The translations under genes were made by a program, and so were the position numbers. Below are positions 13,132 to 40,000 of a DNA stretch of 40,000 nt, in pieces (the stretch's first letter is position 1; each line of letters opens with the position of its first letter). Source of the stretch: Bryobacteraceae bacterium (GTDB lineage Bacteria; Acidobacteriota; Terriglobia; Bryobacterales; Bryobacteraceae); contig DATAXY010000025.1 in the NCBI GenBank assembly GCA_036272835.1, forward strand, positions 334,155 to 374,154. Reading direction: 5' to 3'. Under the pieces are notes generated by a model. That model had not been told where the DNA came from. It made no database searches and worked only from the letters and a program-made list of their open reading frames with translations.

Positions 13132-13207
13132 TGGTGGACGGCATGGGGCTCGAACCCACGACCCCCACGTTGCGAACGTGGTGCTCTCCCAACTGAGCTA
13201 GCCGCCC
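13132..13207 (-). tRNA. tRNA-Ala (anticodon CGC), CCA encoded
   Basis: Reverse complement reads GGGCGGCTAGCTCAGTTGGGAGAGCACCACGTTCGCAACGTGGGGGTCGTGGGTTCGAGCCCCATGCCGTCCACCA. It folds as a cloverleaf with the G3:U70 alanine identity pair and anticodon loop TTCGCAA. Confidence 0.9.
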
Positions 13208-20455: not shown

Positions 20456-21520
20456 GTGAAGGGCTTCAGAGGACTCTCTCGTAGGTCGACTGTTCTGACA
20501 CCAGAGAAAAAAGCAGCCGCTATCGCAGGATTACGTTATGCCATTCCTAAGGGCGCGGGCATTATCAGAAGGCGCGCCGGTCATGGCTTTGTCTACCTTT
20601 GGCAGGGCAAGATTCTTAAGAACGAGGTGATATTGAAGCGCATTCGCTCCTTGGTTATCCCGCCGGCATGGACTTCAGTGTGGATCAGCCCGGACGCGAA
20701 CGGCCATATACAGGCGGTCGGATATGACGCGCGCGGCCGGAAGCAGTATCGATACCACCCCGAATACCGGCATGTTCGCGACTTGGTGAAATTCGATCGT
20801 ATGCGAAGCTTTGGGAGGGCTCTGCCGCGCATTCGCCGTATCGTGGGCCGGGATCTGGTCCGTCCAGGACTGCCGAAACGCAAGGTGGTGGCCGCCATTG
20901 TGCGGTTGCTTGAGACCACCTACATTCGGGTCGGCAATGAAGAATATGTCAAGGAGAACGAATCGTTCGGACTGACAACCTTACGCAACCGCCACGTGGA
21001 GATTCTGGGCGAAGTGCTGCGCTTTCATTTTCGCGGGAAGAGTGGCCAGAGACACGAAATTGCGCTGGACGATGCACGACTCGCGCGGATCGTCAAAAAG
21101 TGTAAGTGCCTGCCGGGGAGTGCCGTATTTCAGTACCTGGATGAGGACGGGCGACCCGCGTCCGTAGACTCGGGCGATGTGAACGAGTATTTGAAAGAAA
21201 TCGCCCAGGGCGAGTTCACCGCCAAGGATTTCCGTACGTGGGGAGGAACCTGTTTGGCCCTCGAGTCTCTTGTCGAGAAAGGCCAAGAGGAGAGAGCCGC
21301 AAACATTAAGACGGCTCTGGTTGACGTTGTAAAGTCCGTGGCATCGAAACTTGGCAACAAACCAAACACCTGCCGCAAGTATTACATCCATCCCGACGTG
21401 CTGGAGAGTTTTGCTACTGGGCGATTGGCTCAAATGGCTGCCGGGTTGCGGAATGGCGAATCCTATCTCTACGAGAAGCTTCTGCTCTCATTGCTCAAAC
21501 CGCAGAAACTGGCGGCCTGA
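20456..21520 (+). CDS. DNA topoisomerase IB (poxvirus-like bacterial type)
   Basis: 354-aa ORF with IPPAWTSVWIS, GYDARGRKQYRYHP, FRGKSG and a C-terminal CRKYYIHP (catalytic Tyr context). Confidence 0.85.
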   Translation: MKGFRGLSRRSTVLTPEKKAAAIAGLRYAIPKGAGIIRRRAGHGFVYLWQGKILKNEVILKRIRSLVIPPAWTSVWISPDANGHIQAVGYDARGRKQYRYHPEYRHVRDLVKFDRMRSFGRALPRIRRIVGRDLVRPGLPKRKVVAAIVRLLETTYIRVGNEEYVKENESFGLTTLRNRHVEILGEVLRFHFRGKSGQRHEIALDDARLARIVKKCKCLPGSAVFQYLDEDGRPASVDSGDVNEYLKEIAQGEFTAKDFRTWGGTCLALESLVEKGQEERAANIKTALVDVVKSVASKLGNKPNTCRKYYIHPDVLESFATGRLAQMAAGLRNGESYLYEKLLLSLLKPQKLAA

Positions 21521-27764: not shown

Positions 27765-28076
27765 TCACCCATGTCCTCTCCCGCGCAAATTGCCGCCAAT
27801 CAGGCCAATGGGATAGGAGATAGAGAGCTGCAAAACTGCCCTCCCCCAGAGACCCTGTGCGACCGCTTCTTTAATTTTGCCCTCGGCCCCAATCGAAACC
27901 AAACACCCTGCCAATTCGGCCTTCAGAAGCAAAGATCGAGGTTCAGAGGCCTTGAAATCCGCTCTCAACAGAAGGTCGCGCGTTCGCCTTAAAGCTTGTG
28001 AGTATTCCCTAGCATCCAGCAGGGCGGTCACTTCATTTAGGAATTCTCGGTCCTCGGGGCTGATCGCTAACCTCAT
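27765..28076 (-). CDS. Hypothetical helical protein; the ORF reads outward through the left TIR into host DNA
   Basis: The 103-aa ORF begins inside the element (MRLAISPEDREFLNEVTALLDAREYSQALRR..., protein-like and TPR-like). Its last ~30 codons are encoded by the TIR, the TSD and host sequence. No recognised family. Confidence 0.3.
   Translation of the reverse strand: MRLAISPEDREFLNEVTALLDAREYSQALRRTRDLLLRADFKASEPRSLLLKAELAGCLVSIGAEGKIKEAVAQGLWGRAVLQLSISYPIGLIGGNLRGRGHG
27771..27809 (+). pseudogene. 5' fragment (13 codons, MSSPAQIAANQAN) of a host hypothetical gene interrupted by the casposon
   Basis: It joins in frame to 39617.. (AKLSTGPRTEEGRARSSHNAV...) once the element and one TSD copy are removed. 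The rest of track ORF 27771..27992 is read-through into the TIR. Confidence 0.8.
27796..27809. repeat. Target-site duplication, left copy (CCAATCAGGCCAAT; 15 bp if G27810 is included)
   Basis: Identical to 39603..39616. The following G is shared by the TSD and TIR interpretations. Confidence 0.85.
27810..27846. repeat. Left terminal inverted repeat
   Basis: GGGATAGGAGATAGAGAGCTGCAAAACTGCCCTCCCC, compared with the reverse complement of 39566..39602, GGGATAGGAGATAGAGAGCGGCAAAACTGCACCCCCC. The first 19 nt are identical and 34/37 positions match ungapped. Confidence 0.9.
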
Positions 28077-28362
28077 ATTGCTTCGGGTGGCACTAAAGCC
28101 CTTGAAGGTTCTTCTCGATGTTGACAGTTGTACAATTCGGAAAGAGAGTCAATGATCCTGATGGTTGGGACAACGACTCGCAGGTTCACATGCAGTGCAG
28201 GCCTTAGAGTTGGTTGTCGTCGTAAATGTCAAACGCTCCTGCCCCTACGTGTTGATCACGAGTTTCCCGAACAATAAGAAAGTTATCGAGTCCTGGATAA
28301 GGTAGAGATGTTCGTTCGCCTTCGCGATACTCCACTCTCTTCGTTTCGCAGGTAAATGCGTC

Positions 28363-29205
28363 TCAGCGTTCAACCAACAAAACCCCTTCCTTCATCCTAA
28401 AGGATGGATCGATGTTTTCCCTAACGAGATCGCACACGTAATTTGCGGCTCTTGTCATCTCAAGCACGAGGTCGTGAATCAAAGCTACATGGTATTCAAA
28501 TTCCAAGAGAAGCCCGGTATAGACATCATGTTCGTATGGCCGTCCCTTATAGAATGAAGCCGTTATCAGATATTCGTTAGGCCTATCCGCATCGTGCTCA
28601 GAATGCCTTGCGAACACCAGTAGAAGATCATTCACGACGAATCGGAATGACTCAAGGCTGTGACGTATCCGTTCATATCGAGTTGGCCAAACTCTCGATA
28701 ATAGCCAGACGCAGAGGCCTCGAAGGCTTTCTAAAAACTCAATGGCGACGATGGGTGTTGGAGCTAGTAAATATGAGGTATAGCCTAACCAATTATCTAA
28801 TCCGGCTCTCTTAGCCCAATCGTCAATGTATGCCGCCCACCTCTCATCGTCGGTCTGCTTCTTACTATCCCAATTGAGTGAGCTGCGAACCCACCCTTCG
28901 TGACTGCACTTAATTTCCTTCAGCTTTTGAACAGTAAAATAATTCTCCTGATCATCGACCTGCTTATGATGGATATTGCACAGCAAAATCAAATTTTCGT
29001 ACTTATTTCTCTGATCGAGGGGAAGGTCAGAATCGCCACGTGGTCCGTCGAGTTGCTCCGCTACGACGTGGGCCGCTTCTCCGACCAATGATGGATCGTC
29101 AGTCTCTGAGGGATCGATTACGAGGTCACGGCGGCACTCAGCTAGCGAGCAACGAGACGCTGCTCGCCCCCAGAGCATACGATTTGTCCTTACGCTGATT
29201 GACAC
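28363..29205 (-). CDS. HNH endonuclease domain protein with an uncharacterised C-terminal domain
   Basis: 280-aa ORF (GTG at 29205; alternative ATG at 29178). HNH core: C..AEC....GEAAHVVA....GPRGD....NKYENLILLCNIHHKQVD. Confidence 0.75.
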   Translation of the reverse strand: MSISVRTNRMLWGRAASRCSLAECRRDLVIDPSETDDPSLVGEAAHVVAEQLDGPRGDSDLPLDQRNKYENLILLCNIHHKQVDDQENYFTVQKLKEIKCSHEGWVRSSLNWDSKKQTDDERWAAYIDDWAKRAGLDNWLGYTSYLLAPTPIVAIEFLESLRGLCVWLLSRVWPTRYERIRHSLESFRFVVNDLLLVFARHSEHDADRPNEYLITASFYKGRPYEHDVYTGLLLEFEYHVALIHDLVLEMTRAANYVCDLVRENIDPSFRMKEGVLLVER

Positions 29206-29272
29206 TGAGTTTCACCACGCAGGTTTCGAGCGTTCAGCCTCCAACAGCGTCGGATGAGTGCTCGCCATTGAT

Positions 29273-30430
29273 CTAAGTTTCTCGCTTTGCCACGTCCGGT
29301 ACACTGTGGGCAGCATCACTACTCGACTGCTCGCAATTCCACAATTCAACTGAATCTGTATAGTAATATTCGACGTTAATTGCGTTCCCGGAATTCCATT
29401 GCCGAACCGCAGAAATTATTTTTGTGTTTGCTTCGCTACCAGGATCACCGTGTAATCCAACAAACACGCATCGGAATGAGGGCGCGAACATTCGTTTCAT
29501 AACGTGAGCATCTGAAGGCCCAAGGCTGTGACCAAACGTAAAAAGGATACTCCCGCTGCGGGAGAAGGTTGTGAGGCAGTACCTCAAGTACGGATGCCGG
29601 GTAATCTGCTGCATCTTTTCAGCGCTTGTTCCCTCGCAAACAAATAGGGGAGCTCGGCCCTCTCTGATGTTCATCTTGATTTGATCTACAAGTTTGCCAC
29701 CATCAGAGGTGATTTTCGTCAGTATTCCGTTTGACTCGAACAGGTGAAGCCCGCCGTGCAAGAAGTGCACATTCTGTTGGTATTGGCGGGTCTCCCGAAA
29801 AGTGTCCCTCCACTCAAGTCTTCCCTCTAAAAACTCTGACCTTCTGAAGCCGTCGCTCCATCCCTCCCAGCCAGCCGTAGCGAGAGTCCAATATAGAAGC
29901 AGATCGTAGTTCAAGGTGAAAACGTGGCCAAAGTTCTTCAGAAAGGAAAGCGTCGACGCGTAAGCATCATCGGGTATAACGAACACGTGATCGGGATGCC
30001 GTTGGGCAACAGCCCTAACCAGCGCATCTTTTATGAAATCACTATCTACTCGAAACTTCTCGCCGATCTGCAACCCGTGCTCGGCGTGACATGTCGCGAG
30101 CTTGCTTGCGATATCCAGATAGCGGATGACCTCTTCGAAATCTTTGGTACCGAGAATCTCAAACGCTTTTTGGGCTGTTGGAGCTAAGCTGAAATCGGTA
30201 TCGGTGAACAAGGCATTGTAGCTGAAAATGCTCTTATCCCAAGCGATACTGAATCCATTGCCGAGAAGAAGAACACATCTCTCAGGGGGTCCATACTCTT
30301 TGGCCTTCTGAAGAGCCCGGTCAAACGAAACGACCTCAATCACAATAAGACATAATACAGTACGCTTGTTGTTGGGCAAGCCCAAAGCTTCAAAACGCTC
30401 GCCTAATACTTGCCTCCTCAATTCCTCCAA
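29273..30430 (-). CDS. DUF4917-like protein (SIR2-like / DHS-like NAD-binding superfamily candidate)
   Basis: 385-aa ORF with LLLGNGFSIA, FTLNYDLLLYW, VHFLHGGLHLF and FGHSLGPSDAHV, which I recall as the DUF4917/SIR2_2-type motif series. It overlaps the polB stop by 13 bp; the start may be internal. Confidence 0.55.
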   Translation of the reverse strand: MEELRRQVLGERFEALGLPNNKRTVLCLIVIEVVSFDRALQKAKEYGPPERCVLLLGNGFSIAWDKSIFSYNALFTDTDFSLAPTAQKAFEILGTKDFEEVIRYLDIASKLATCHAEHGLQIGEKFRVDSDFIKDALVRAVAQRHPDHVFVIPDDAYASTLSFLKNFGHVFTLNYDLLLYWTLATAGWEGWSDGFRRSEFLEGRLEWRDTFRETRQYQQNVHFLHGGLHLFESNGILTKITSDGGKLVDQIKMNIREGRAPLFVCEGTSAEKMQQITRHPYLRYCLTTFSRSGSILFTFGHSLGPSDAHVMKRMFAPSFRCVFVGLHGDPGSEANTKIISAVRQWNSGNAINVEYYYTDSVELWNCEQSSSDAAHSVPDVAKRET

Positions 30431-33400
30431 GTGTTCGACTCTTCCCCGGTAAACCCATCCGAACTGCTTTGCGGCAGCAGTAACCGCTTAAGCAAATTCT
30501 CATTCGTCGCATGCGGTCTGCTCCTTCCAGCCCTCAGATCGATCAGCGCACGACGAGAAAGCCCGCTCACTCTCACTAGTTCCGAGAGCGCGATCTTCTT
30601 CAGTGCGGGCAAGATCTGCATGGTCCACTCGTCTCGACGTTGATCAACATATTCCGTGTACACATCTCCCTCGTCCCGGACCATGCCAGATTCAACATCT
30701 TCGAGACGATTCGATTCTTTGCCGATGTAGATGATCCTGTCGATTTGGATGTGTCTGCGCTGAAGTAGACCGACCGTCTGTTTGTCGCAGACAATGCCCT
30801 GGGTATCGGCACACTTCGATTCAGGGTGGTACTCGTATTCGGTCAGAATATCGTTGTACGTTTTGACGCGTGCCATTGTGCGTGTTCCGTGCTGGCCTTC
30901 GGTGATGATGCGATACGTGTTGCCGCTGTACTGGTCGATCCATTTTGCCTTGTGCCATTTATTCGGGTCGGTTTCGTAGGGCGCAATCAGATGGAAGTGA
31001 TTTGGATCGGCTTCGGTTGGATGTCCGAAACTATCAACTTGGGCTGTCAGCAAGAAATTGAAGGGCTTGATCTGCGCTCCGTATTGCTTACCGGCGTTGA
31101 AGGTTGAGAATGGCTTCATGACCGCAGGACTGCTGACGGTAACTCGCCCGACTGCTGGCATATGCCCAAAGCTGAGAGCCAATGTTGGCAACCCGAAATG
31201 CTCTCGAATAATGTTGAGCCACACTTGCCCAATCCAGTCGCGGTCTTCATCACCGAGATTCATCGGATTAAGCAGATGTCCAAGGCCGTGCTCTTTCCAT
31301 CCATTGTCTTTGCTGTTGGCGTTCCGGCGCAACAAAACCGGGTCTCCGGTTTCATCCTTTAGAAATAGGGCGTATCGCTTTGCTGAGATCCCAAAACAAT
31401 AGATTTGTCTCTGCTTCTTCGATACCGGATCGAAGTTCACATCCTCGATTTTGAGCACGGAACCGGATACAAGCGTTGCGTCGTATGTGTTCGGTGCTCT
31501 GAACGTTTCGGCGATCTGCCAGACCTGCTCCCATGAGAGAGCCTGAATTGCCGGTTTGCCGTCCTCAGTTGCCAGCGATCCGCCGGGACACGGCACAATC
31601 CCACCGTGTTCAGTGGCGACGATCGCCATCGAGTCCGTGTCTTCCATGGCATACGTTCCGCTAAGGCTCGTGACACTGTGCTCAAGCAGGGCAAGCATGA
31701 GACGCGCGGCCCCCGTGATCAGTGACGCCATCGGCGAAAAGAAGTATTCTCCGGGCTTTTCGACGCGTGCATTTTGGCTTGAGAATGGCTCAGGGTCGAT
31801 TCCGTGGCAGATTGTGGATTTCTCCTTTTCCTGCTCATCGCGATTCATTTCAGCGTAGATCCCGTAACTGGTCGCGTTCGCTAGTACTTTGAGAAATTTG
31901 TTCAGCGGGTTCTCGGACGGTATCTGCTTCCGCTGTTCAATTGCAACCTTGAAGAAATCCTGTTTCGCCGGGTTGATCTCCAATTCTCCGCGCAGCCGAA
32001 TTGGTATCAGCCCAGGCAAAGTACCTTTGGGAACAATACGAAACGCATCCAAAATCGTAGGTATGCGTCCAGTCAGAATTACCGATGCAACGACATCAGG
32101 TAATGATAACCAAATCGCGTGCCGGTCCGGATTTTCTTTGTCTCCGTAAAGATAATTCGATCCGACCTGCCAATCCTTGCTGACATCCGAATATTTCGCT
32201 CTCGTTGGGACAATATCGCCATCCGGGACAATCTTCACGAACGCTGTGAGGAACTTCCAGATTTCCGGCTGAAACAATTTCTCTGGCGTGATCGCTGAGA
32301 GCCAATCGCTGATTTCGGCTGCGCAATTCTCGACAACTTCGATTTTCTTAGCAATGACGAACCGCCACAATCCCATGAGACTGTTAACCGTTGGATACAT
32401 CGACAGAAAATCCACGTACACAACGGGCACAGAAACTTTCCGAATATGAACGCTGGTGCGGCCCCCGAAGAATGCAGATTGCGCATATCCAATAAACTGT
32501 TTCGGAAACTCCGGCTGACGCTTCAGTATCGGTGGAATATTCATCGCCTTGAGATGTGCCTTACCGATCGACGCTGGCGAATATGCCTTGGTCTCCTGAA
32601 GATCGATCGAATGCCAGTCGTATTCTTCGAGAAGCTTGAAAAGCAGCCCCGCAGTTGCGCGAACGTCCTGCCGGTTGTATTCGATGTATTCGTCAGAAAC
32701 AACTCCGTGACCAAGAGCCTTTGATTTTCCTGCCTTAACTCCAAAATCTTTGCAAGCTCGCTCCAAACTGTAGTTCTTGTCGGTGAGTGCAAAAGCGAGT
32801 GTTTTCAAATCCAGGAAATGCCCCCGGAAGATATATCCTTTCTCGGGTTTGCCCGTTGTTGAGCCTTCTGGAATGAGATCCACAAAGTCAGGATTCTTTC
32901 GCGCGGTGAATCCCTTCAATGCGCTCTTGCTGTTGATGTGCTTGATTCCGAGCCTGGGTAGAAACGGATTCCGTTTGTTGGCGTTGGTTTTGTCTTGATA
33001 CGTATCGAGACCCAACGAGAAGCCACCCTCGAACGCACCTCGGGCTGTTGTGGCGTCAGACGCGATCCGGGAGAGGTCAAAGGGCAAATTGAAGCCGACA
33101 ATCAGGCCCCTGGTTTTGTATCCGACTTGATAAAGCTTGCGAATGAATTGGCTACGGGTGAGGAGCAGCAGCTTTCGTGATTGTCTTGCGCCTGTGTCTT
33201 GCGTGTTCTTTGCCACGTATTCTTTGAGAGTCGAAAGTTCGATTCCGGTTATGTCATCACCAAAGAACAGACCTTCTTCGACGCAATACTTGCCGTCGAA
33301 ATATCGATAGCTGCCAAAGATTAGGCTTTGTATCTGGTCAGTTCTGGTTTCCGTATCGAATACAAGAAAGCCGGTTGGACGTTTCCTGGACGCTGGTTTC

Positions 33401-33486
33401 TTCGGCTTCTGCTTATCGTGCTTTTTCGCGTCAGGGTAGACTCGGACCGCGATGTTCAGGGGTGTTGGGTCGGACTGTTTAATCAA
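30418..33486 (-). CDS. polB: Family-B DNA polymerase with 3'-5' exonuclease domain
   Basis: 1022-aa ORF with a TTG start. Exonuclease motifs: ExoI FDTET (D44, E46), ExoII NLPFD (N133-D137), ExoIII YNRQD (Y270-D274). Polymerase motifs: A YVDFLSMYPT (D359), B KVLANATSYG (K533), C YAMEDTDS (D616, D618). Confidence 0.92.
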   Translation of the reverse strand: MIKQSDPTPLNIAVRVYPDAKKHDKQKPKKPASRKRPTGFLVFDTETRTDQIQSLIFGSYRYFDGKYCVEEGLFFGDDITGIELSTLKEYVAKNTQDTGARQSRKLLLLTRSQFIRKLYQVGYKTRGLIVGFNLPFDLSRIASDATTARGAFEGGFSLGLDTYQDKTNANKRNPFLPRLGIKHINSKSALKGFTARKNPDFVDLIPEGSTTGKPEKGYIFRGHFLDLKTLAFALTDKNYSLERACKDFGVKAGKSKALGHGVVSDEYIEYNRQDVRATAGLLFKLLEEYDWHSIDLQETKAYSPASIGKAHLKAMNIPPILKRQPEFPKQFIGYAQSAFFGGRTSVHIRKVSVPVVYVDFLSMYPTVNSLMGLWRFVIAKKIEVVENCAAEISDWLSAITPEKLFQPEIWKFLTAFVKIVPDGDIVPTRAKYSDVSKDWQVGSNYLYGDKENPDRHAIWLSLPDVVASVILTGRIPTILDAFRIVPKGTLPGLIPIRLRGELEINPAKQDFFKVAIEQRKQIPSENPLNKFLKVLANATSYGIYAEMNRDEQEKEKSTICHGIDPEPFSSQNARVEKPGEYFFSPMASLITGAARLMLALLEHSVTSLSGTYAMEDTDSMAIVATEHGGIVPCPGGSLATEDGKPAIQALSWEQVWQIAETFRAPNTYDATLVSGSVLKIEDVNFDPVSKKQRQIYCFGISAKRYALFLKDETGDPVLLRRNANSKDNGWKEHGLGHLLNPMNLGDEDRDWIGQVWLNIIREHFGLPTLALSFGHMPAVGRVTVSSPAVMKPFSTFNAGKQYGAQIKPFNFLLTAQVDSFGHPTEADPNHFHLIAPYETDPNKWHKAKWIDQYSGNTYRIITEGQHGTRTMARVKTYNDILTEYEYHPESKCADTQGIVCDKQTVGLLQRRHIQIDRIIYIGKESNRLEDVESGMVRDEGDVYTEYVDQRRDEWTMQILPALKKIALSELVRVSGLSRRALIDLRAGRSRPHATNENLLKRLLLPQSSSDGFTGEESNTWRN

Positions 33487-34015
33487 CTGAGTCGCCCCCC
33501 TTGCGAAGTTTCTGCCACCATTTCGCCCCCAACATTTCAGTCATCTCCGCATCGAGCTTTTCAAGATTTTCCGGCTGTATCGAGAGAAATCGCTCGATCA
33601 AGTAAGACTGCATGTCAACGAATCCTCGAATACTTGCAGCTGCCCGGCGAAGTGGACTTTGATCGGGATTTTCCAGGGTTCGTGTTGGCCAGTCTTTCTG
33701 TGCTCGTGTCAATTCCGCCCGATGATCGTTGACGGGTATTTCGACTGTTGCCGGATGGTTGTTCTTGCCAGCAACATGATGTTTGTCCATTGTTGTTCGT
33801 CCTTTCTTTTTACGAAGACAAGCTGCGCACATGACCGAGTGTTTTCTCCGTGTCAATGCTTCAGGTCTCCTCTCGCCGCAATGACATGCAGCATTCTCAC
33901 CAACTCTTCTTTGCGCAATTGCTGTTCGCTGCGCTGCTTTGATGGGATCTCGTCCTTGTCGGTTTGAATTCACTTCAGACGCTCCTCGCATACACAGATT
34001 CGAAAGAAAGCACAC
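33479..34015 (-). CDS. Zinc-ribbon / HNH-like small protein, translationally coupled to polB
   Basis: 178-aa ORF (GTG at 34015; the ATG at 33991 is more plausible). Contains CHCGE...CAAC cysteines and DKHHVAGKNNHPATVEIPVNDHRAEL (H-N-H-like spacing). Its stop overlaps the polB TTG start by 8 nt (GTTGATTAA). Confidence 0.4.
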   Translation of the reverse strand: MCFLSNLCMRGASEVNSNRQGRDPIKAAQRTAIAQRRVGENAACHCGERRPEALTRRKHSVMCAACLRKKKGRTTMDKHHVAGKNNHPATVEIPVNDHRAELTRAQKDWPTRTLENPDQSPLRRAAASIRGFVDMQSYLIERFLSIQPENLEKLDAEMTEMLGAKWWQKLRKGGDSVD

Positions 34016-34613
34016 CGGCAGAACCGAGGCGATTCAGTTCCTTTAAGTCGGTAACGAGTCGAATCTCGTTTCCATTGGCGTCCTTCACTTTTTTGCCTCT
34101 AAATTTCTTCAGAGCGGAACTGTCGCCAGTTCTGAGGTACTTCTGAACGGCGTCCATGTATCGGCCTACCGTGCTGCCGTATTTGGAATTGCGAAGTGAA
34201 ACTTCCTGCTGGCCTTCATTTGATGGAATTCGCATCACTCGAAGAAGGCTGTCTGTTTTGGATACCGAATACCGTCCATTCGGCTGCTTCTTGATGGCGC
34301 GGCCAGCCCAACGAACAACGGTTTGAGACTTAACCCCCGCTTCTTTAGCAGCCTTGCTGAGAGACAACCGATCAGTTCGCATCTTGGCGATTGTCCGAAG
34401 GACCTTACTCCAGGTCTCTTGGTCCGCTTCAGGTTTTGCGAAGAAATCGTCCCGAGTTCGGGGCACGGAAGGGGCGGGACGCCGTCCACGGCTTATTTTT
34501 CTCTTGCGCCTCACGACATGAGCATGCAGGTTTGTTTTGGCAACAACAACAAAAAGTTTGTGTGTCGAAATTGCCAGGAACAGGTCGGCAGCAGTGATTG
34601 GCATCGTTGCCAA
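33975..34613 (-). CDS. Hypothetical DNA-binding protein (HTH: LSLSKAAKEAGVKSQTVVRW)
   Basis: 212-aa ORF. The N-terminal ~40 codons look non-coding and contain a palindrome, so the true start is probably further in (a GTG near 34530). The basic RRKRKISRGRR stretch precedes an HTH-like segment. Confidence 0.4.
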   Translation of the reverse strand: MATMPITAADLFLAISTHKLFVVVAKTNLHAHVVRRKRKISRGRRPAPSVPRTRDDFFAKPEADQETWSKVLRTIAKMRTDRLSLSKAAKEAGVKSQTVVRWAGRAIKKQPNGRYSVSKTDSLLRVMRIPSNEGQQEVSLRNSKYGSTVGRYMDAVQKYLRTGDSSALKKFRGKKVKDANGNEIRLVTDLKELNRLGSAGVLSFESVYARSV

Positions 34614-34619
34614 TCACTG
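34592..34619. promoter_or_regulatory. Perfect 12-4-12 palindrome (candidate operator) in the divergent control region of the element
   Basis: CAGTGATTGGCA-TCGT-TGCCAATCACTG. It lies 21 nt upstream of the ATG of ORF 34640 and over the annotated 5' end of ORF 33975..34613. Confidence 0.5.
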
Positions 34620-34639
34620 TTGGACAATAGTTTCTGGCA

Positions 34640-35242
34640 ATGGTTGAAGATGGAATGACAGACGAGACCCTACGAAAGCTAAAGGAGCAATTCCAGGAGC
34701 TAAAGCATACATTCACGAGTCTCAGCGGTTCGTCGGATTACTCCGTAGCCATCCAAGAGCTTCAGGCACTCACAAAGGATATGCCGTTGCTGGCACCGTT
34801 CCTGCGGGACGCAGCAGAACGGATGATGCCTGAAGCGACCCGAGGCAATACCGTACGCCCCGAAATGTTCACTCGTTATTTAGCGGCGATTGACACAGAG
34901 GAAAAGTTTGATCTAGTCCTTGCAAGTATGACGGAATCTGATGGTCAGCAGCTAAGCAGGCACTTAACACAGATGCTAAAGAGCGTTCTTCCCAACATTA
35001 GGGAGGACGGATTAGAAACTTTAAAGAAATTACCCCATCGGCGCGGTGGTGGAAGAAAGAAGGAAGTCGATGATGAACGAGCAGAACGGATTTGCAAAAA
35101 AATCGCAAAGCATATTGAGTCTGGCGTAAGTATTGGCGACGCGCAACGACGGGTTAGCAAGGACGAACGTCTAAGCGAAAGAACCGTTAGAGAAGTCTGG
35201 CAAAACCGAAAGAAAAGACACTTGGTGACTGAGAACAGCTAA
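34640..35242 (+). CDS. Hypothetical protein with C-terminal HTH-like segment
   Basis: 200-aa ORF upstream of cas1 on the same strand. The C-terminus GVSIGDAQRRVSKDERLSERTVREVW resembles a resolvase/Sigma70_r4-type HTH. No family recognised. Confidence 0.45.
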   Translation: MVEDGMTDETLRKLKEQFQELKHTFTSLSGSSDYSVAIQELQALTKDMPLLAPFLRDAAERMMPEATRGNTVRPEMFTRYLAAIDTEEKFDLVLASMTESDGQQLSRHLTQMLKSVLPNIREDGLETLKKLPHRRGGGRKKEVDDERAERICKKIAKHIESGVSIGDAQRRVSKDERLSERTVREVWQNRKKRHLVTENS

Positions 35243-35344
35243 CCAGCGATGACCTGGAAACGTCAACTATTTGAAGGAATATCGGGCCTGCAGCTTGTTC
35301 CACCAAGCGGCAAGCCCTAACCAGCACAGGAGGGTTAAGCTCCC

Positions 35345-36934
35345 ATGAAGGCTACAAAAACCGTAGCGCAGTCGTCGCGCGTCCGCAAGTTAACGCCGCG
35401 ACCGCCAGCAAACATCCACTTCCGACGCTTGTTCGCACCCAGCCATGGTGTCGTGGTTCTTGTCGGATTCGGGATCAAGGTTCGAATCGATCGAGGCCAT
35501 CTAATGCTAGAGGAGGGCATCGGCGACGATCGCCGTGTAGGTCGATTCCCGCGTGTCCATCATGGCCTCAGCCGCGTAGTGGCGATCGGTAACGATGGCG
35601 TAGTCTCGTTGGCAGCGTTGCAGTGGCTTGCCGATCAGAAGATAGCCCTTTCGATGTTGGAACGGGACGGAGTTGTTCTCTGCTCGATAGGTCCCATTGC
35701 GGCCTCAGACACGAGGTTGCGCCGTGCGCAAGCGTGTCTGTCTCATTCACCCTCAGCCGTTTTGATTGTTCGGGAATTGATCCGCCAGAAAATCGCCGGT
35801 CAGGAGAGCGTTGTCCGAAACAAGCTCAACAAAACGAGCGCGGCTCACGTGATCGCCAGATTTCGGAATCAACTCATGACCGCAGACAGCATCGATACCA
35901 TCCGGATGATCGAGGGACATGCAGCGGGTGTTTACTGGACAGCCTGGCAGGATGTCGCGATTCGATTTCCGAAGAGCGATCTTCCGAAAATCCCGGAACA
36001 CTGGACCCAATTTAGTACCCGTCGTTCTCCCATCTCTGGCACGTCGCGGCGATCGCCGAACCCGGTAAACGCTATTCTGAATTACCTCTACACGCTCCTG
36101 GAATCGGAAACACGGCTGGCCATCACAGCGCTCGGACTGGACCCCGGCTTCGGGCTGCTTCACGTCGATCAATCGACCCGTGACAGTCTCGTCTATGACT
36201 TGATGGAACCGATTCGACCCAAGATCGACGCCTACGTTCTCGATTGGATACTACGGACACCCCTCAAGCGCTCATGGTTTTTCGAAGAACGTGATGGTTG
36301 TTGCCGTCTCATGTCCGACATGACCGCTTCTCTAGCAGACACTACGAGAACCTGGGCTGAAGAAGTAGCGCCGATCGTCGAATGGTTTGCGCAGTCGCTT
36401 GCGTCCTCAGCCCAGGAGAGCACTCGGGTTCGGACACCGGCAACACGCCTCACTCAGCGCAGTAGATGCGAAGGACAGGGCGTTAGCGCCCCCGCCGCGA
36501 AAGAACCAAAAACTCAGCCGAACGTTTGCACCATATGCGGAACCGCTGTCTCACCGAACAATCGCTACTGCCATGAGTGCGGCCAGCAGGAATCGGGTAA
36601 GCGGCTTGCCGCAGCCCAAGCCATGAGTCTGGATGCCGCAAGGACACCAGAAGCGCTGGAGAAGAAATCAGCGGCAATGAAGGACCATCGGAACGCTCTC
36701 AGGAATTGGCAACCGTCGGATCTGCCGGAATGGTTAACCGATGAGGTTTACATCGCCAAAATTCAACTCGCCCTTGAGCGTTTTTCTAAAGCGGAAATTG
36801 CCAGAGCCCTCGGAATCTCCAAAGATTACGTCTACGAAATCGTGCGTGGCGATAAGGTGCCACATAAACGGCATTGGGTGAAGTTGGCGGAATTGGTGGG
36901 GATGAGCTCAGAAGAGGGGTCGAAGAGACGGTAA
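35345..36934 (+). CDS. cas1: Cas1 homologue (casposase-type integrase) with C-terminal zinc ribbon and HTH
   Basis: 529-aa ORF with AGGAGG ~10 nt upstream of the ATG. Cas1 motifs: IEGHAAGVYW (E190), NPVNAILNYLYTLLESE, GLDPGFGLLH (H273), YDLMEPIRP (D286/E288). C-terminal CTICG-x10-CHECG and FSKAEIARALGISKDYVYEIVRG. Confidence 0.9.
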   Translation: MKATKTVAQSSRVRKLTPRPPANIHFRRLFAPSHGVVVLVGFGIKVRIDRGHLMLEEGIGDDRRVGRFPRVHHGLSRVVAIGNDGVVSLAALQWLADQKIALSMLERDGVVLCSIGPIAASDTRLRRAQACLSHSPSAVLIVRELIRQKIAGQESVVRNKLNKTSAAHVIARFRNQLMTADSIDTIRMIEGHAAGVYWTAWQDVAIRFPKSDLPKIPEHWTQFSTRRSPISGTSRRSPNPVNAILNYLYTLLESETRLAITALGLDPGFGLLHVDQSTRDSLVYDLMEPIRPKIDAYVLDWILRTPLKRSWFFEERDGCCRLMSDMTASLADTTRTWAEEVAPIVEWFAQSLASSAQESTRVRTPATRLTQRSRCEGQGVSAPAAKEPKTQPNVCTICGTAVSPNNRYCHECGQQESGKRLAAAQAMSLDAARTPEALEKKSAAMKDHRNALRNWQPSDLPEWLTDEVYIAKIQLALERFSKAEIARALGISKDYVYEIVRGDKVPHKRHWVKLAELVGMSSEEGSKRR

Positions 36935-37126
36935 AGCCCGGTAAAGGGGAAACCGGCGATATATAATTCTCGGAATGACTCGGCTCAAGTGGGACAAATC
37001 ACAGCGTCTTGGCTAAATGATTGCGAGAATGATTAGAGGGCCAGTTGACGTTGCGAACCACGGAATTGCGGTGTTCAGCCGGGCGTGTCAGATGTTGGCC
37101 ATCATAGTTGAGCCTGTTTACTTGAA

Positions 37127-37876
37127 GTGGCGAAAGGAGGTCGCAACAATTTGATTGCGGGCGAGAACGATGTGCGTTCGAGGCCGGTTTACTCGATACC
37201 CGAGGCAGCCGGATACCTAGGCATACCCATCAACACCCTGGTTGCTTGGACCGTGGGGCGACGAAAGGCGAATAGTCCCAACTTTTATGTGCCGATACTA
37301 AGCTTCGTAAATCCGGATCTCAGGAAGTTGTCCTTTTATGATCTTGTAGAAGCGCAGATTCTTCGTGTCGCAGTCGAGCGTAAGGTACCCCTGAGGCAAT
37401 TGAAGCGAGGATTGGCATATCTCAGAAGTAAGCATCCGCTTAACCCTAGACCACTGCTCACTTATGATTTTCTAACTGAGGGCAAGTATTTGTTGGTCGG
37501 TGGGATGCTTGGGTCTAAAGAAAAGGACCAGGATGCCCTCGTAAACGCCTCGGTGCACGGGCAACTCGAAATGGCCAGCGTAATTGGAGAACATGTCAGC
37601 CTTCTGCTTAGCGGCATCGATGAATCTCTCAAATTCGTCGCGCGCGACCACGGCTCTAAGTTGCCTCATACGTTGTTTCCGAAAGGCGGACACCACTTGG
37701 TTTCGATCACGCCAGGAGTGGTTTCCGGTCGCCCAGCTATCGAAGGTACACGCATACCAACTAGGATCATTGCTCAGCGATTTCGTGCTGGTGAAGACGC
37801 CAAGACATTAGCGAAGGACTATCGTCTTTCAAAGGAGAAGATTGAGGCGGCGATCCAATACGAAGCAGCCGCATGA
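37127..37876 (+). CDS. VapB45-like antitoxin candidate: N-terminal MerR-like HTH plus C-terminal DUF433 domain
   Basis: 249-aa ORF (GTG at 37127; the TTG at 37151 is better placed, 10 nt after AAGGAGG). YSIPEAAGYLGIPINTLVAW is an HTH. The C-terminal ITPGVVSGRPAIEGTRIPTRIIAQRFRAGEDAKTLAKDY matches the DUF433 pattern. Confidence 0.7.
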   Translation: MAKGGRNNLIAGENDVRSRPVYSIPEAAGYLGIPINTLVAWTVGRRKANSPNFYVPILSFVNPDLRKLSFYDLVEAQILRVAVERKVPLRQLKRGLAYLRSKHPLNPRPLLTYDFLTEGKYLLVGGMLGSKEKDQDALVNASVHGQLEMASVIGEHVSLLLSGIDESLKFVARDHGSKLPHTLFPKGGHHLVSITPGVVSGRPAIEGTRIPTRIIAQRFRAGEDAKTLAKDYRLSKEKIEAAIQYEAAA

Positions 37877-38369
37877 TCCTCACGTTCTTTATCTGGACGA
37901 GGACATAAGCGGTAATAAGTTGGCATCCCTGCTACTGCAAGCACGAATAGCGGTGAAGAACTATGAATCACTGCTTAGGAAAAATAAGAAGGTTCCGGAT
38001 GGTCGTGTGATTCTCACTAGCGCCAAGGCTAACTTTGTACTCGTAACGACAGACAAGAGGATGGAGGCCGAATGGGTCGAGGACATCATCATGAACAGGG
38101 CAAAGGTGCTCCTTTTAACTGATGAGTGCGGTGGCCCGATACATTGGGCGTCAGCACTAATTTGCGGACAGTCAGCCTGGACAAGAGTTCTTCTTGATCA
38201 TCATGGCGAGCCTCTGACCATGAGGGTTAATAGAAACGGCTCCGTTACAAAAGTGACGGGAGAAAAAGAACTCAGGGAGCGTAGCGATGCTCTGTTTCAG
38301 TCAAACGTTGTTCGTGCCAAGCGGAGCGGGGAGACGTTGCCTCGCCGCGTAATGAAAAAACACGCGTGA
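37842..38369 (+). CDS. DUF5615 / PIN-like (VapC45-like) toxin candidate
   Basis: 175-aa ORF overlapping the upstream gene by 35 bp. LYLDEDISGNKLASLL...DGRVILTSAKANFVLVTTDKRM fits the D-E..D..T.D acidic pattern of DUF5615. Confidence 0.55.
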   Translation: MRRRSNTKQPHDPHVLYLDEDISGNKLASLLLQARIAVKNYESLLRKNKKVPDGRVILTSAKANFVLVTTDKRMEAEWVEDIIMNRAKVLLLTDECGGPIHWASALICGQSAWTRVLLDHHGEPLTMRVNRNGSVTKVTGEKELRERSDALFQSNVVRAKRSGETLPRRVMKKHA

Positions 38370-38561
38370 AAGTGTGCACTAGATGAGGTCAACCCCTAAG
38401 CCCATGCGGATTACACCTGAGTTAACTTCACTCTGTAAAAGGCAACCACCAGCCCGAACTGATGAACGCAGCATTCCGTGCTGTACTGAAACTTCCGCAC
38501 GCAGCAGTATGAAGGACGCAGCAAGGCGGGAGCGAGCAAGCGCGAAGAAGAAGTCCGCCTA

Positions 38562-39401
38562 ATGCGAACTATCAGCGAAGTTATCAGTGAAATCCGCTTT
38601 TCGCTTTCTCGTGCCCTCAGCTTGGTTCATAAGAATGAGACGCTTCTAACGTCACAGCTGGAAGAACATGAAGACCAAATAGCCAAGCGAGAAGTTGAGG
38701 CTGAAATCGAATTTTTTGTTAACCAAGCATTTAGGCGCGCTGTTGTAATGGCAGAGGTTAGAGGATTAAAGAGCACCCGTAGCTCCATTGAACGACTTTA
38801 TAAAGAAGCGCAAGGTCAGCTTTCAAGTTTCGAAGACGTTCATGGGGAGATCTATCTTAAGTGGCAGCCACGGCTAGAGGAGTTCTTAGACGCATTACAG
38901 ATTGCGCTAGGCGAGCCGAGTTCGGCACTAATAACGAGAGAGATTATCAGCATACTAAAAGAGACTCAATATAGCATCACGAGACCAATATATTTCGGCA
39001 GAGTTCCCGAGAAGGAAAAAGACGTGCATGATCGGATCGAAGCGATTTTGCGATGTATATTTCCTGACATGAAGCATAAGCCTCACGTTGGCACGTTCTT
39101 GAAAAACTTCGAGCCGGACACTGGCCTTCCTTCGATTAAGACACTCCTGGAATATAAGTTTGTCAAGAGCGACAACGAGGCCCGGACTGTCTTAGATCAG
39201 CTGTTTTCGGATGTCGTTGGTTATTCATCCCCTGAGTGGAAAACACTCATCTGCGTTATCTATGAAACGAAGCGTGTCTTTTCGGAGAAGCAGTGGAACA
39301 CCGAGGTGAAGTCGAGACCGGCTTTTCAGGATTCGGGAGTTGCCGAGAACGTCCAGGTAGTTGTAATCTCTGGAGATTCCCCCCGGGGTTCGAAGGCGTA
39401 A
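38562..39401 (+). CDS. Hypothetical protein with C-terminal PD-(D/E)xK-like nuclease motif
   Basis: 279-aa ORF. The N-terminal half looks like a coiled coil. The C-terminal FEPDTGLPSIKTLLEYKFVK fits D-x(n)-E-x-K of the restriction-endonuclease-like fold. No family recognised. Confidence 0.4.
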   Translation: MRTISEVISEIRFSLSRALSLVHKNETLLTSQLEEHEDQIAKREVEAEIEFFVNQAFRRAVVMAEVRGLKSTRSSIERLYKEAQGQLSSFEDVHGEIYLKWQPRLEEFLDALQIALGEPSSALITREIISILKETQYSITRPIYFGRVPEKEKDVHDRIEAILRCIFPDMKHKPHVGTFLKNFEPDTGLPSIKTLLEYKFVKSDNEARTVLDQLFSDVVGYSSPEWKTLICVIYETKRVFSEKQWNTEVKSRPAFQDSGVAENVQVVVISGDSPRGSKA

Positions 39402-39565
39402 CCCAAACGATCTCTTGTGCATCGAGTAGCGGCATCGAAACACCGCAAGACGTTTGCCTGGCGCGTTTTTACGATCACCGCAAATCTGATTCGCCAATTC
39501 TCGGATTAACAATTTTGAGCACCTGGCGTTCTAGGTCTTTTTAACTAGCCCACTCGATTCGGATT

Positions 39566-39602
39566 GGGGGGTGCAGTTTTGCCGCTCTCTATCTCCTATC
39601 CC
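39566..39602. repeat. Right terminal inverted repeat
   Basis: Its reverse complement matches 27810..27846 at 34/37 positions, with the first 19 nt identical. Confidence 0.9.
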
Positions 39603-39616
39603 CCAATCAGGCCAAT
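39603..39616. repeat. Target-site duplication, right copy (CCAATCAGGCCAAT)
   Basis: Identical to 27796..27809. Confidence 0.85.
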
Positions 39617-40000
39617 GCCAAACTATCTACGGGTCCTCGGACCGAAGAGGGCCGAGCCAGATCCTCTCACAACGCCGTCCGCACGGCGCTGACCGGCCGC
39701 ACCGTTCTGCTGCCCACCGATGATGTCGAGGAATACAAGAAGCACGTCGCCCGCTTCGAAGCCGAGTTCAAACCCGTCACCGAGCGCGAAAAAGAACTCA
39801 CCCAGAACATCGCCGAGACCCAGTGGCGCATCGATCGGATTTTCTCCCTCGAACAAGGCATCTACGCCGTCGGCCGCGTCGAATTCGCCGATCTCTTCCA
39901 AAACCAGGATGAGGCCGTCCGCGCCGCCATGATCGACGTGAAAACTCTGACCACCTATCAGCGCCAGCTCAACAATCTCTCGCTTCAAGAGGAACGTCTT
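39603..40000 (+). pseudogene. 3' portion of the interrupted host hypothetical gene (continues beyond the window)
   Basis: The frame from 39605 reads NQAN AKLSTGPRTEEGRARSSHNAVRTALTGRTVLLPTDDVEEYKKHVARFEAEF... and is open to the window end. It has no start codon of its own. Track ORF 39623..39988 (-) is its antisense shadow. Confidence 0.8.

Follow-up and report, generated by a model that had tools for sequence, protein, structure and literature searches.

A probable, structurally intact family-3 casposon in a Bryobacteraceae chromosome

We analysed a 40,000-nt stretch of DNA from a Bryobacteraceae bacterium (contig DATAXY010000025.1, positions 334,155 to 374,154; hereafter the window), in which the segment 27810-39602 is very probably a structurally intact casposon of family 3, inserted in the chromosome of a soil acidobacterium. 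Casposons are transposons that replicate themselves and integrate through a Cas1. They are thought to be ancestral to the CRISPR adaptation machinery. We assigned the segment to the known casposons because every testable feature that defines them was found in it and its Cas1 groups with family 3. A casposon-like element had already been proposed here from the letters of the DNA alone (hereafter, the sequence-only reading); the element fits a family already described and is not a new kind.

The window corresponds, reversed, to positions 138-40137 of a 374,635-bp contig of the Joint Genome Institute (JGI) metagenome 3300036820 (SRR11836411). Relatives were obtained by scanning one genome per species in 185,579 species, and 83 related loci (L001-L083) were compared with the element by tblastn. 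Ten open reading frames (ORFs) of the element were scanned with Pfam and NCBIfam and seven with PHROGs, 20 ORFs of the flanks were scanned as well, and the CRISPR and cas context was inspected within the 40 kb of the window. JGI metagenomes were scanned for exact occurrences of the first 18 nt of the terminal inverted repeat (TIR) of the element. We considered as paired-end loci the 33 in which both TIRs were within reach.

Borders and core enzymes

The element is 11,793 bp long and is bounded by two 37-nt TIR arms, complementary at 34 of 37 positions (92%); a search of 13 kb gave no inverted repeat that is longer or better (the coordinates of all the features are in Table 1). Both arms directly abut a target-site duplication (TSD), CCAATCAGGCCAAT(G), which is perfect over 14 bp and reaches 15 bp with one further G that may be part of the TIR instead. 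The reconstructed empty site is GCAAATTGCCGCCAATCAGGCCAATGCCAAACTATCTACGGG. The guanine-cytosine (GC) content is mostly 0.47-0.53 within these borders and 0.54-0.61 in the flanks. Length, imperfect TIRs, perfect duplication and AT-richer composition were all part of the sequence-only reading and were recovered by our searches.

The ORF of the 529-aa Cas1 is uninterrupted, its translation contains all the peptides quoted in the sequence-only reading, and it was matched by Pfam PF01867 (Cas_Cas1, E-value 3.5e-45) and by TIGR00287 (E-value 1.9e-34). M1 and the N-terminal peptide recur in 24 homologues, which supports the start codon. In the same homologues E190, H273, D285 and E288 are invariant, at the positions where we expect the Glu, His and acidic (D285/E288) residues of Cas1 catalysis; the stretches around them align with the casposase of Methanosarcina mazei (PDB 6opm). 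Behind the Cas1 domain we obtained weak, sub-threshold matches to a Zn-ribbon and to a helix-turn-helix (HTH), which suggest an architecture like that of AceAut-C1, whose Cas1 has, C-terminally, a Zn-binding domain and an HTH (PMC4046053).

For the Cas1 tree, the window protein and nine acidobacterial relatives were added to the reference alignment of the 2014 casposon paper (Krupovic 2014), with CRISPR references of types I and II, and neighbour-joining was run on 286 columns with 100 bootstraps. The window protein and its nine relatives form one clade (bootstrap 89), which is sister to AceAut-C1 (bootstrap 85) and lies within family 3 (bootstrap 79; references NitAL212, AceAut, StrAlb, SacSpi and HenMar), with families 1 and 2, the CRISPR type I/II references and solo group 1 all outside. 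The window Cas1 shares 39.8% identity with AceAut-C1, 25-28% with family 2 and 17-27% with the references of CRISPR and of solo group 1. These sequence comparisons support its place in the casposase clade (Cas1-solo group 2), in family 3, and not among the type I/II CRISPR Cas1; the casposon architecture of the sequence-only reading was borne out, and the protein falls outside the CRISPR clades sampled.

That the protein is an orphan adaptation gene, derived from a CRISPR-Cas locus and next to a polymerase by chance, is hardly credible. The best NCBIfam match is the generic cas1 equivalog model, and a CRISPR Cas1 in the PDB (4n06, E-value 4e-17) nearly equals the casposase 6opm (2.5e-17), but the tree groups the protein with the family-3 casposases and its linkage with the polymerase recurs in 75 of the 83 related loci, within TIR and TSD borders. 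Moreover, no CRISPR-like repeats were found in the 40 kb and no cas2 or other cas gene among the 10 element and 20 flanking ORFs scanned, as had been claimed from the sequence alone. Among plasmids (PLSDB), the only relatives were CRISPR Cas1, with at most 36% identity over about half of the protein.

The second core enzyme is a 1022-aa protein with a C-terminal extension, annotated as a hypothetical protein in the metagenome-assembled genome (MAG) with VHZ07_ locus tags. The Exo I-III and Pol A/B/C motifs named in the sequence-only reading are invariant in 25 homologues (Exo I, D44xE46; Exo II, N133...F136 D137; Exo III, Y270xxxD274; A, D359...S362xY364; B, K533...S540 Y541 G542; C, D616 T617 D618), and so is a KxY motif (K703 R704 Y705). 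Profile searches, which had been proposed for both enzymes, were strong for Cas1 but only borderline for the polymerase (PF03175, 25.0 bits versus a cut-off of 25.8; phrog_1907, E-value 2.6e-8). The assignment was settled by the fold search alone, because searches of the PDB by sequence, either with the single protein or with a 25-sequence profile, gave nothing. Precisely, the AlphaFold model (mean predicted local distance difference test, pLDDT, of 59, with most core blocks >80) was submitted to Foldseek, and the top 50 PDB matches were all family-B DNA polymerases (E-values of about 1e-8 to 2e-6, probability 1.0), including pol alpha, phi29, poxvirus, Pol II and pol epsilon enzymes; this search does not separate the phi29 type from the pol alpha/Pol II type. 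Motifs and modelled fold together support a family-B DNA polymerase (PolB).

The PF03175 family includes protein-primed viral and organellar polymerases, as would suit another integrative element with a PolB, pipolin-like or proviral, that used another recombinase or virus packaging and carried Cas1 as a passenger. The defence cargo described below would also recall pipolins (PMC11551731). We regard this explanation as very improbable. In fact, no tyrosine, serine or DDE recombinase was found in the ten element ORFs (Pfam, NCBIfam) or in the seven (PHROGs), the sole recombinase trace being a sub-threshold match between the N-terminal part of the IS481 transposase model and a 212-aa protein; the Pfam (ten ORFs) and PHROGs (seven) scans detected neither capsid nor packaging genes. 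The borders, too, are TIRs with a 14-bp TSD and not att-type direct repeats at a tRNA gene, and a duplication of 14-15 bp is the mark that casposases leave on integration (15 bp in Aciduliprofundum boonei; PMC5137440).

The median identity of the window PolB to those of 75 related loci is 37%, though the database holds thousands of PolBs that are about 60% identical to it; to the loci with this PolB median, the median identity of Cas1 is 49%. On these identities the two modules, polymerase and integrase, may not share one history, whether through an exchange of modules or because there are two PolB subfamilies.

The disrupted gene and its recurrent target site

A gene on the + strand is cut by the element after codon 13 (MSSPAQIAANQAN / AKLSTGPRTEEGRARSS...). 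It belongs to a family of hypothetical proteins of about 225 aa with >1,000 clusters, for which no significant Pfam match and no PHROGs or PADLOC match was obtained. The window copy is probably inactivated, because there is no in-frame ATG, GTG or TTG between the upstream stop, which is inside the element, and the TSD. At least four intact paralogues, 78-94% identical (VHZ07_15020, VHZ07_12660, VHZ07_21910 and VHZ07_14760), are placed in the host MAG because of their VHZ07_ locus tags. Another paralogue, uninterrupted, is on a different contig of the same metagenome (L085), and both window flanks align with it colinearly and overlap by exactly the duplicated bases. The uninterrupted target foreseen by the sequence-only reading was hence seen in this paralogue, which is not the empty allele of the window locus. 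A second 225-aa gene beside the L085 paralogue was considered as a relative of the target protein and was rejected, as no kinship was found.

The JGI contig, whose end corresponds to window position 40137, and a contig from Logan (L161) both break in or at the target gene. Both breaks are consistent with the target gene being a repeat in the host genome.

The same site was found occupied in the closest relatives (L002/L003, L004, L001/L005 and L006; Cas1 61-73% identical), whose TIRs begin alike and all adjoin that one codon position, each in a diverged copy of the target gene and in either orientation. Relatives carry the same borders, in agreement with the sequence-only reading. The exact 18-nt scan of the metagenomes gave 75 loci, with eight more distinct flanks bearing a junction with the target gene (L097, L110, L144, L152 at both ends, L115, L140 and L149). 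Taking together the window, L001, L002, L004, L006 and the eight metagenome flanks, we counted 13 independent insertions in a homologous site, in both orientations. We considered them as separate insertions and not as copies of one event because the duplicated 14-mers differ (e.g., CCAATCAGGCCAAT, CCAACCTGGCGAAC and CGAATCAGCAGAAC).

Some of these loci are peculiar. L152:104-2373 (JGI contig Ga0209112_10010830) is 2.27 kb long, has both GGGATAGGAGATAGAGAG TIRs and is again inserted in the target gene; too small for Cas1 or PolB, it is possibly a mini-casposon of the non-autonomous kind, and its non-identical flanking 14-mers suggest recombination between copies. L004 (150-275 and 19735-19900) and L006 (9258-9680 and 14812-14920) are rearranged: in each of them one TIR is linked to the target's 5′ part, and a second, uninterrupted copy of the target promoter and 5′ region is nearby. 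In L004 codon 6 of this second copy is a TAG and the copy adjoins an inverted partial cas1, and in L006 cas1 is truncated at the 5′ end. These rearrangements suggest recombination between copies of the target gene or between elements.

A multicopy target raises the question of an assembly artefact, in which repeated target copies were mis-joined in the metagenome to give the junctions, and the contig does end inside the target about 0.5 kb beyond the element. We consider an artefact highly unlikely. Both junctions share their TIR/TSD geometry with 33 independent relatives, complete isolate chromosomes included, and the left one is inside a 374-kb contig. As for the right one, the Logan contig L161, produced by a second assembler, repeats 10,266 bp up to the same junction, where it ends, with zero differences (100% identity), and it may share its sample with the window.

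Gene content and standing of the casposon reading

Besides Cas1, kept in 83/83 related loci, and PolB (75/83), the conserved core includes a 212-aa HTH-like protein (62/83) and a 178-aa Zn-finger protein (28/83). The order PolB, small Zn-finger gene, ~200-aa gene, divergent ~200-300-aa gene and Cas1 is common to L001-L003. In the 178-aa protein the CxCGE...CxxC and DxHHxAG...NDH pattern is invariant in 14 homologues, and no significant match was obtained in Pfam (E-values up to 10) or with a 14-sequence profile against the PDB; from this motif the protein is a putative HNH nuclease. The 200-aa putative HTH protein upstream of cas1 has a gene of similar size at the same position in L001-L003, with similarity of sequence in only 5 loci. 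A palindrome overlaps the starts of the two divergent HTH-like genes and would be a candidate divergent promoter or operator for the regulators of the element.

The cargo genes are at both ends of the element, and each of them was found in 0/83 related loci. The DUF4917 protein matches over its full length the PADLOC candidate defence gene PDC-S21 (E-value 3.9e-96), and the 280-aa protein matches PDC-M68A (E-value 5e-32), SAVED_HNH (E-value 2e-29) and, weakly, Pfam HNH_2. Judging from these matches the cargo looks defence-like, with functions that can only be presumed, and it is unique to the window element among the loci compared; in the relatives the same positions carry different genes, e.g. 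a protein with a TIR domain, a reverse transcriptase with PolA, DUF5677 and DUF2321. The cargo named in the sequence-only reading largely stood: the DUF4917 and 280-aa HNH proteins were recovered, along with a DUF433 protein and a DpnII/MboI-type nuclease domain; its second HNH protein (the 178-aa one) is such by motif only, and for its VapC45-like partner we found only DUF5615 (E-value 0.15), so that a DUF5615/PIN-like toxin partner is possible from the pairing of the genes.

Table 1. Features of the element and of the disrupted gene (positions in the window; loci are the related loci with a match).
Feature	Position	Strand	Evidence and remarks
Target gene 5′ fragment, 13 codons, MSSPAQIAANQAN	27771..27809	+	Aligns with the start of paralogue L085:3001-3678
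Left TSD copy, 14 bp, CCAATCAGGCCAAT	27796..27809		G at 27810 shared with the TIR
Left TIR, GGGATAGGAGATAGAGAGCTGCAAAACTGCCCTCCCC	27810..27846	+	Inverted-repeat search; same TIR in L002, L004 and many metagenome loci
HNH-domain cargo, 280 aa	28363..29205	-	N-terminal HNH as in effector endonucleases of CBASS (cyclic-oligonucleotide-based antiphage signalling system)/SAVED; PDC-M68A; 0/83 loci
DUF4917 (SIR2-like) cargo	29273..30430	-	PF16263, E-value 3.6e-52; 0/83 loci
Family-B DNA polymerase (predicted), 1022 aa, C-terminal extension	30418..33486	-	Core; motifs, AlphaFold + Foldseek; 75/83 loci
Zn-finger protein, 178 aa, putative HNH nuclease	33479..34015	-	Core; CxCGE...CxxC + DxHHxAG...NDH; E<1e-5 in 28/83 loci
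Putative HTH protein, 212 aa	33975..34613	-	Core; weak match to the IS481 transposase model (N-terminal region); 62/83 loci
Imperfect 34-nt palindrome (76% complementary)	34570..34641		Overlaps the starts of two divergent HTH-like genes
Putative HTH protein, 200 aa, upstream of cas1	34640..35242	+	HTH_32, E-value 1e-4, below the Pfam cut-off
Casposase, 529 aa	35345..36934	+	Core; Cas1 domain (residues 41-325), Zn-ribbon-like (391-413), C-terminal HTH-like (479-523); 83/83 loci
DUF433 + HTH_66 cargo, putative antitoxin-like regulator	37127..37876	+	PF04255, E-value 7e-15; 0/83 loci
175-aa cargo	37842..38369	+	Overlaps the DUF433 gene; faint DUF5615 match, E-value 0.15
279-aa cargo, C-terminal DpnII/MboI-type (PD-(D/E)xK) nuclease domain	38562..39401	+	PF18742, E-value 2e-12; PADLOC Aga_Helical-REase, E-value 4e-12
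Right TIR, 34/37 complementary to the left arm	39566..39602	-	Inverted-repeat search
Right TSD copy, 14 bp, + G at 39617	39603..39616		Direct-repeat search
Target gene 3′ part, NQANAKLSTGPRTEEGRARSS...	39603..40000	+	Runs past the end of the window and of the contig

Several points weigh against the assignment of the segment to an intact family-3 casposon. The TIR arms mismatch at 3 of 37 positions, and neither an empty-site allele of the window locus, nor an excised form, nor a second identical copy was found. At about 0.5 kb from the end of the contig, the element has little context on its right-hand side. The Cas1 tree is distance-based, not maximum likelihood, and has few references. The best PolB profile, PF03175, is of the protein-primed type, whereas the PolBs of family 2 and 3 casposons are of the RNA-primed type (PMC4779613). 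Among the smaller core genes, the HNH nuclease was assigned by motif and the HTH of the 212-aa protein is our reading of the sub-threshold match to the IS481 model.

Mismatches in the TIRs, together with the missing empty allele and second copy, would also be compatible with a fixed element, i.e. an immobilised relic: an ancient insertion that is now an island kept for its defence cargo, which does look useful to the host, and whose Cas1 and PolB no longer transpose. We judge this improbable. The TSD copies are identical, the Cas1 and PolB ORFs are uninterrupted and of full length relative to their homologues, with invariant catalytic motifs, and the close relatives (those with Cas1 61-73% identical) are in different target copies, in both orientations and with wholly different cargo, which argues for ongoing turnover in the lineage. 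Present-day mobility of the window copy itself would be favoured by its intact genes and identical TSDs.

For the family-3 casposon that we prefer, we propose the following course of events, whose catalytic steps would follow by homology those of the A. boonei and M. mazei casposases (PMC5137440; PDB 6opm). The casposase (Cas1 with Zn-ribbon and HTH) would bind the 37-nt TIRs and join both 3′ ends to the target with a 14-bp stagger, and gap repair would then leave the 14-bp duplication. PolB would copy the element ("self-synthesizing"), with the small Zn-finger/HNH-like protein and the HTH proteins completing the conserved core, although the mode of replication, like the present-day activity and the functions of the cargo, can only be presumed. 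Integration would be site-specific, after codon 13 (A-N-x-x-N / A, the slash being the point of insertion) of the ~225-aa multicopy gene, and the target would be read either by the Zn-ribbon/HTH of the casposase or by the separate HTH proteins. One target copy would be destroyed while its paralogues remain, which would make the gene a low-cost landing pad; the ends of the element would carry exchangeable defence-like cargo.

As for the host, the DnaJ, isocitrate dehydrogenase and Ppx proteins of the window, as well as the proteins of the element, have exact matches in the Bryobacteraceae MAG with VHZ07_ locus tags, which agrees with the acidobacterial host suggested by the sequence-only reading. 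The 20 flanking ORFs scanned are housekeeping genes (among them isocitrate dehydrogenase, PurK, ThyX, Ppx/GppA, GrpE, DnaJ, topoisomerase IB and PyrF). Type IB topoisomerases are uncommon in bacteria, and the one in the chromosomal flank (Topoisom_I + Top1B_N_bact, 20456-21520) is unrelated to the element. A tRNA-Ala gene (13135-13207 by Rfam, 13132-13207 by ARAGORN), also unrelated to the element, is the sole Rfam match in the window.

Acidobacterial relatives and known systems

The species scan gave relatives at 428 places, and the Cas1 clade has >1,200 protein clusters. The best 80 of the 428 are all labelled Acidobacteriota, with the exception of one contig binned as Micrarchaeota, and include two isolates, Tunturiibacter psychrotolerans X4BP1 (L026) and T. 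lichenicola MP8S11 (L040). The exception (L054, CAVXKJ010000003.1) is a 197-kb contig binned as "Candidatus Micrarchaeota archaeon" with a Cas1 of the acidobacterial clade (50% identity); it is probably a binning error and could be a transfer.

An exact 14-bp duplication is present in 33/33 paired-end relatives, including complete isolate chromosomes. In 25 of the 33 the first letters of the 14-mer are GTCAA (or the last ones TTGAC, when the orientation is reversed), where TTGAC is the first hexamer of a sigma-70-like match whose second hexamer is 17-18 bp away and outside the duplication, e.g. TTGACC-18-TAAGAT (L066) and TTGACC-17-TACACT (L025), which are matches to the consensus only. A complete promoter-like site therefore stays beside the downstream gene. 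Judged by us from its N-terminal sequence, this gene looks like valS in seven loci; an eighth, L078, has the same promoter sequence. In six loci the downstream gene encodes a protein of 520-600 aa whose N-terminus resembles a signal peptide, and in two a protein of ~340 aa, possibly radical-SAM. Rfam at the gathering threshold gave nothing in six promoter-type target loci. The CCAAYC... of the gene-type sites is similar to the GTCAAAC of the promoter-type ones but offset by one base, and we do not claim that the two motifs are the same.

Elements with differing TIRs, from different acidobacterial genomes, share the one promoter-like site TTGACC-18-TAAGAT (L018, L020, L059, L066, L067, L071, L074 and L078). 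This site, with the valS-like gene downstream in seven loci, appears to be an insertion hot spot, and several of the loci have two adjacent elements.

The 14-mer is followed without a gap by another TIR in at least 10 loci, and in several flanks from the metagenomes as well. Such TIR / 13-14 nt / TIR junctions were seen in L039:19154-19200, in L071, L059, L043, L078, L079, L021, L029, L013 and L020 and, among the metagenome loci, in L100, L103, L106, L121, L135, L141 and L143. Their sequence indicates tandem casposons split by a single copy of the target, a layout reminiscent of repeats and spacers. The far TIR of the neighbouring elements was sought in L043, L021, L079 and L074 and was not reached in the short flanks available. 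Each end of L025 (4069-4291 and 18695-18917) has ~220 nt with the 36-nt TIR twice in inverted orientation, which is either an internal hairpin or a solo mini-element at each end.

Taken as a whole, these relatives lead us to a tentative reading, which we hold to be a real possibility though short of probable. There would be a very large, still-active acidobacterial radiation of family 3, whose casposases read a short motif at the edge of the 14-bp target and an adjacent "leader"; most lineages would seek out the -35 box (TTGAC) of promoter-like sites that lie upstream of housekeeping genes, valS for example; TIR-14 bp-TIR arrays would pile up at the leader, in parallel with the leader-proximal growth of CRISPR arrays; and the window sublineage would have been retargeted to codons 10-14 of a multicopy gene. 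The tandem arrays would fit, by analogy, the A. boonei model, where integration is guided by the duplicated segment and an adjacent "leader-like" segment, which together are the target, and where insertions should recur at a single site (PMC5137440). If this reading is true, bacterial casposition and its target choice would be experimentally tractable, because complete TIR/TSD elements are present in cultured Tunturiibacter.

Among the known systems the closest is family 3, represented by AceAut-C1 (PMC4046053), which shares with the window element a bacterial host, a sister solo Cas1 with C-terminal Zn-binding domain and HTH (sub-threshold matches in the window protein), a family-B polymerase, TIRs and a TSD and, on putative assignments in the window, a small nuclease-like gene and HTH genes. 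The window element differs in its host phylum, Acidobacteriota being new for the family, in the very large size of its clade, and in the disruption of a protein-coding gene, whereas the bacterial casposons known in 2016 were all intergenic (PMC4779613). Family 2 (AciBoo-C1; M. mazei) has the logic of a five-gene core (Cas1 with C-terminal HTH, PolB, small nuclease and two HTH) that the window element, with its putative nuclease and HTH proteins, would share, and likewise a 14-15-bp TSD, site-specific integration and tandem insertions at one site (PMC5137440, PMC4779613). Its hosts, however, are archaea and its Cas1 is distant from that of the window (identities above); moreover, it targets tRNA 3′ ends or intergenic regions and leaves genes intact, in contrast to the codon 13/14 of a multicopy gene in the window and to the -35 box of promoter-like sites in the sister lineages.

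With CRISPR Cas1-Cas2 the element shares a homologous Cas1 fold and catalytic motif and the integration of ends at a fixed stagger beside a recognition (leader) sequence, but no Cas2, array or effector genes were found in the 40 kb and the substrate is the element's own TIR ends. Pipolins integrate via tyrosine recombinases. As described in PMC11551731, pipolins too are integrative PolB elements with variable, defence-like peripheral genes, and they are commonly flanked by direct repeats and have a primer-independent PolB; the window element has, instead, TIRs, a 14-bp TSD and a Cas1 integrase.

In the searchable literature we found no link of casposons with Acidobacteria or Terriglobia; the 2017 review PMC5665730 is outside this coverage, and a prior mention there is possible. 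On our sequence comparisons, the large bacterial casposon branch is one that we did not find described in that literature. To our knowledge, experiments on casposons so far concern the archaeal families 1 and 2, and the bacterial family 3 is known from few genomes. In M. mazei, insertions or excisions have been looked for in culture (PMC10359463).

For the window, a casposon accounts for both the 11.8-kb island of low GC and the split gene. More widely, family 3 has a large and diverse branch in soil Acidobacteriota, with clean 14-bp duplications and with targets specific to each lineage, either a codon in a multicopy gene or promoter-like -35 boxes. Complete copies are in cultured strains, and the TIR and target sequences are substrates with which the site choice of bacterial casposases could be tested. 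Casposons would then join the elements that ferry defence-like genes in soil bacteria.

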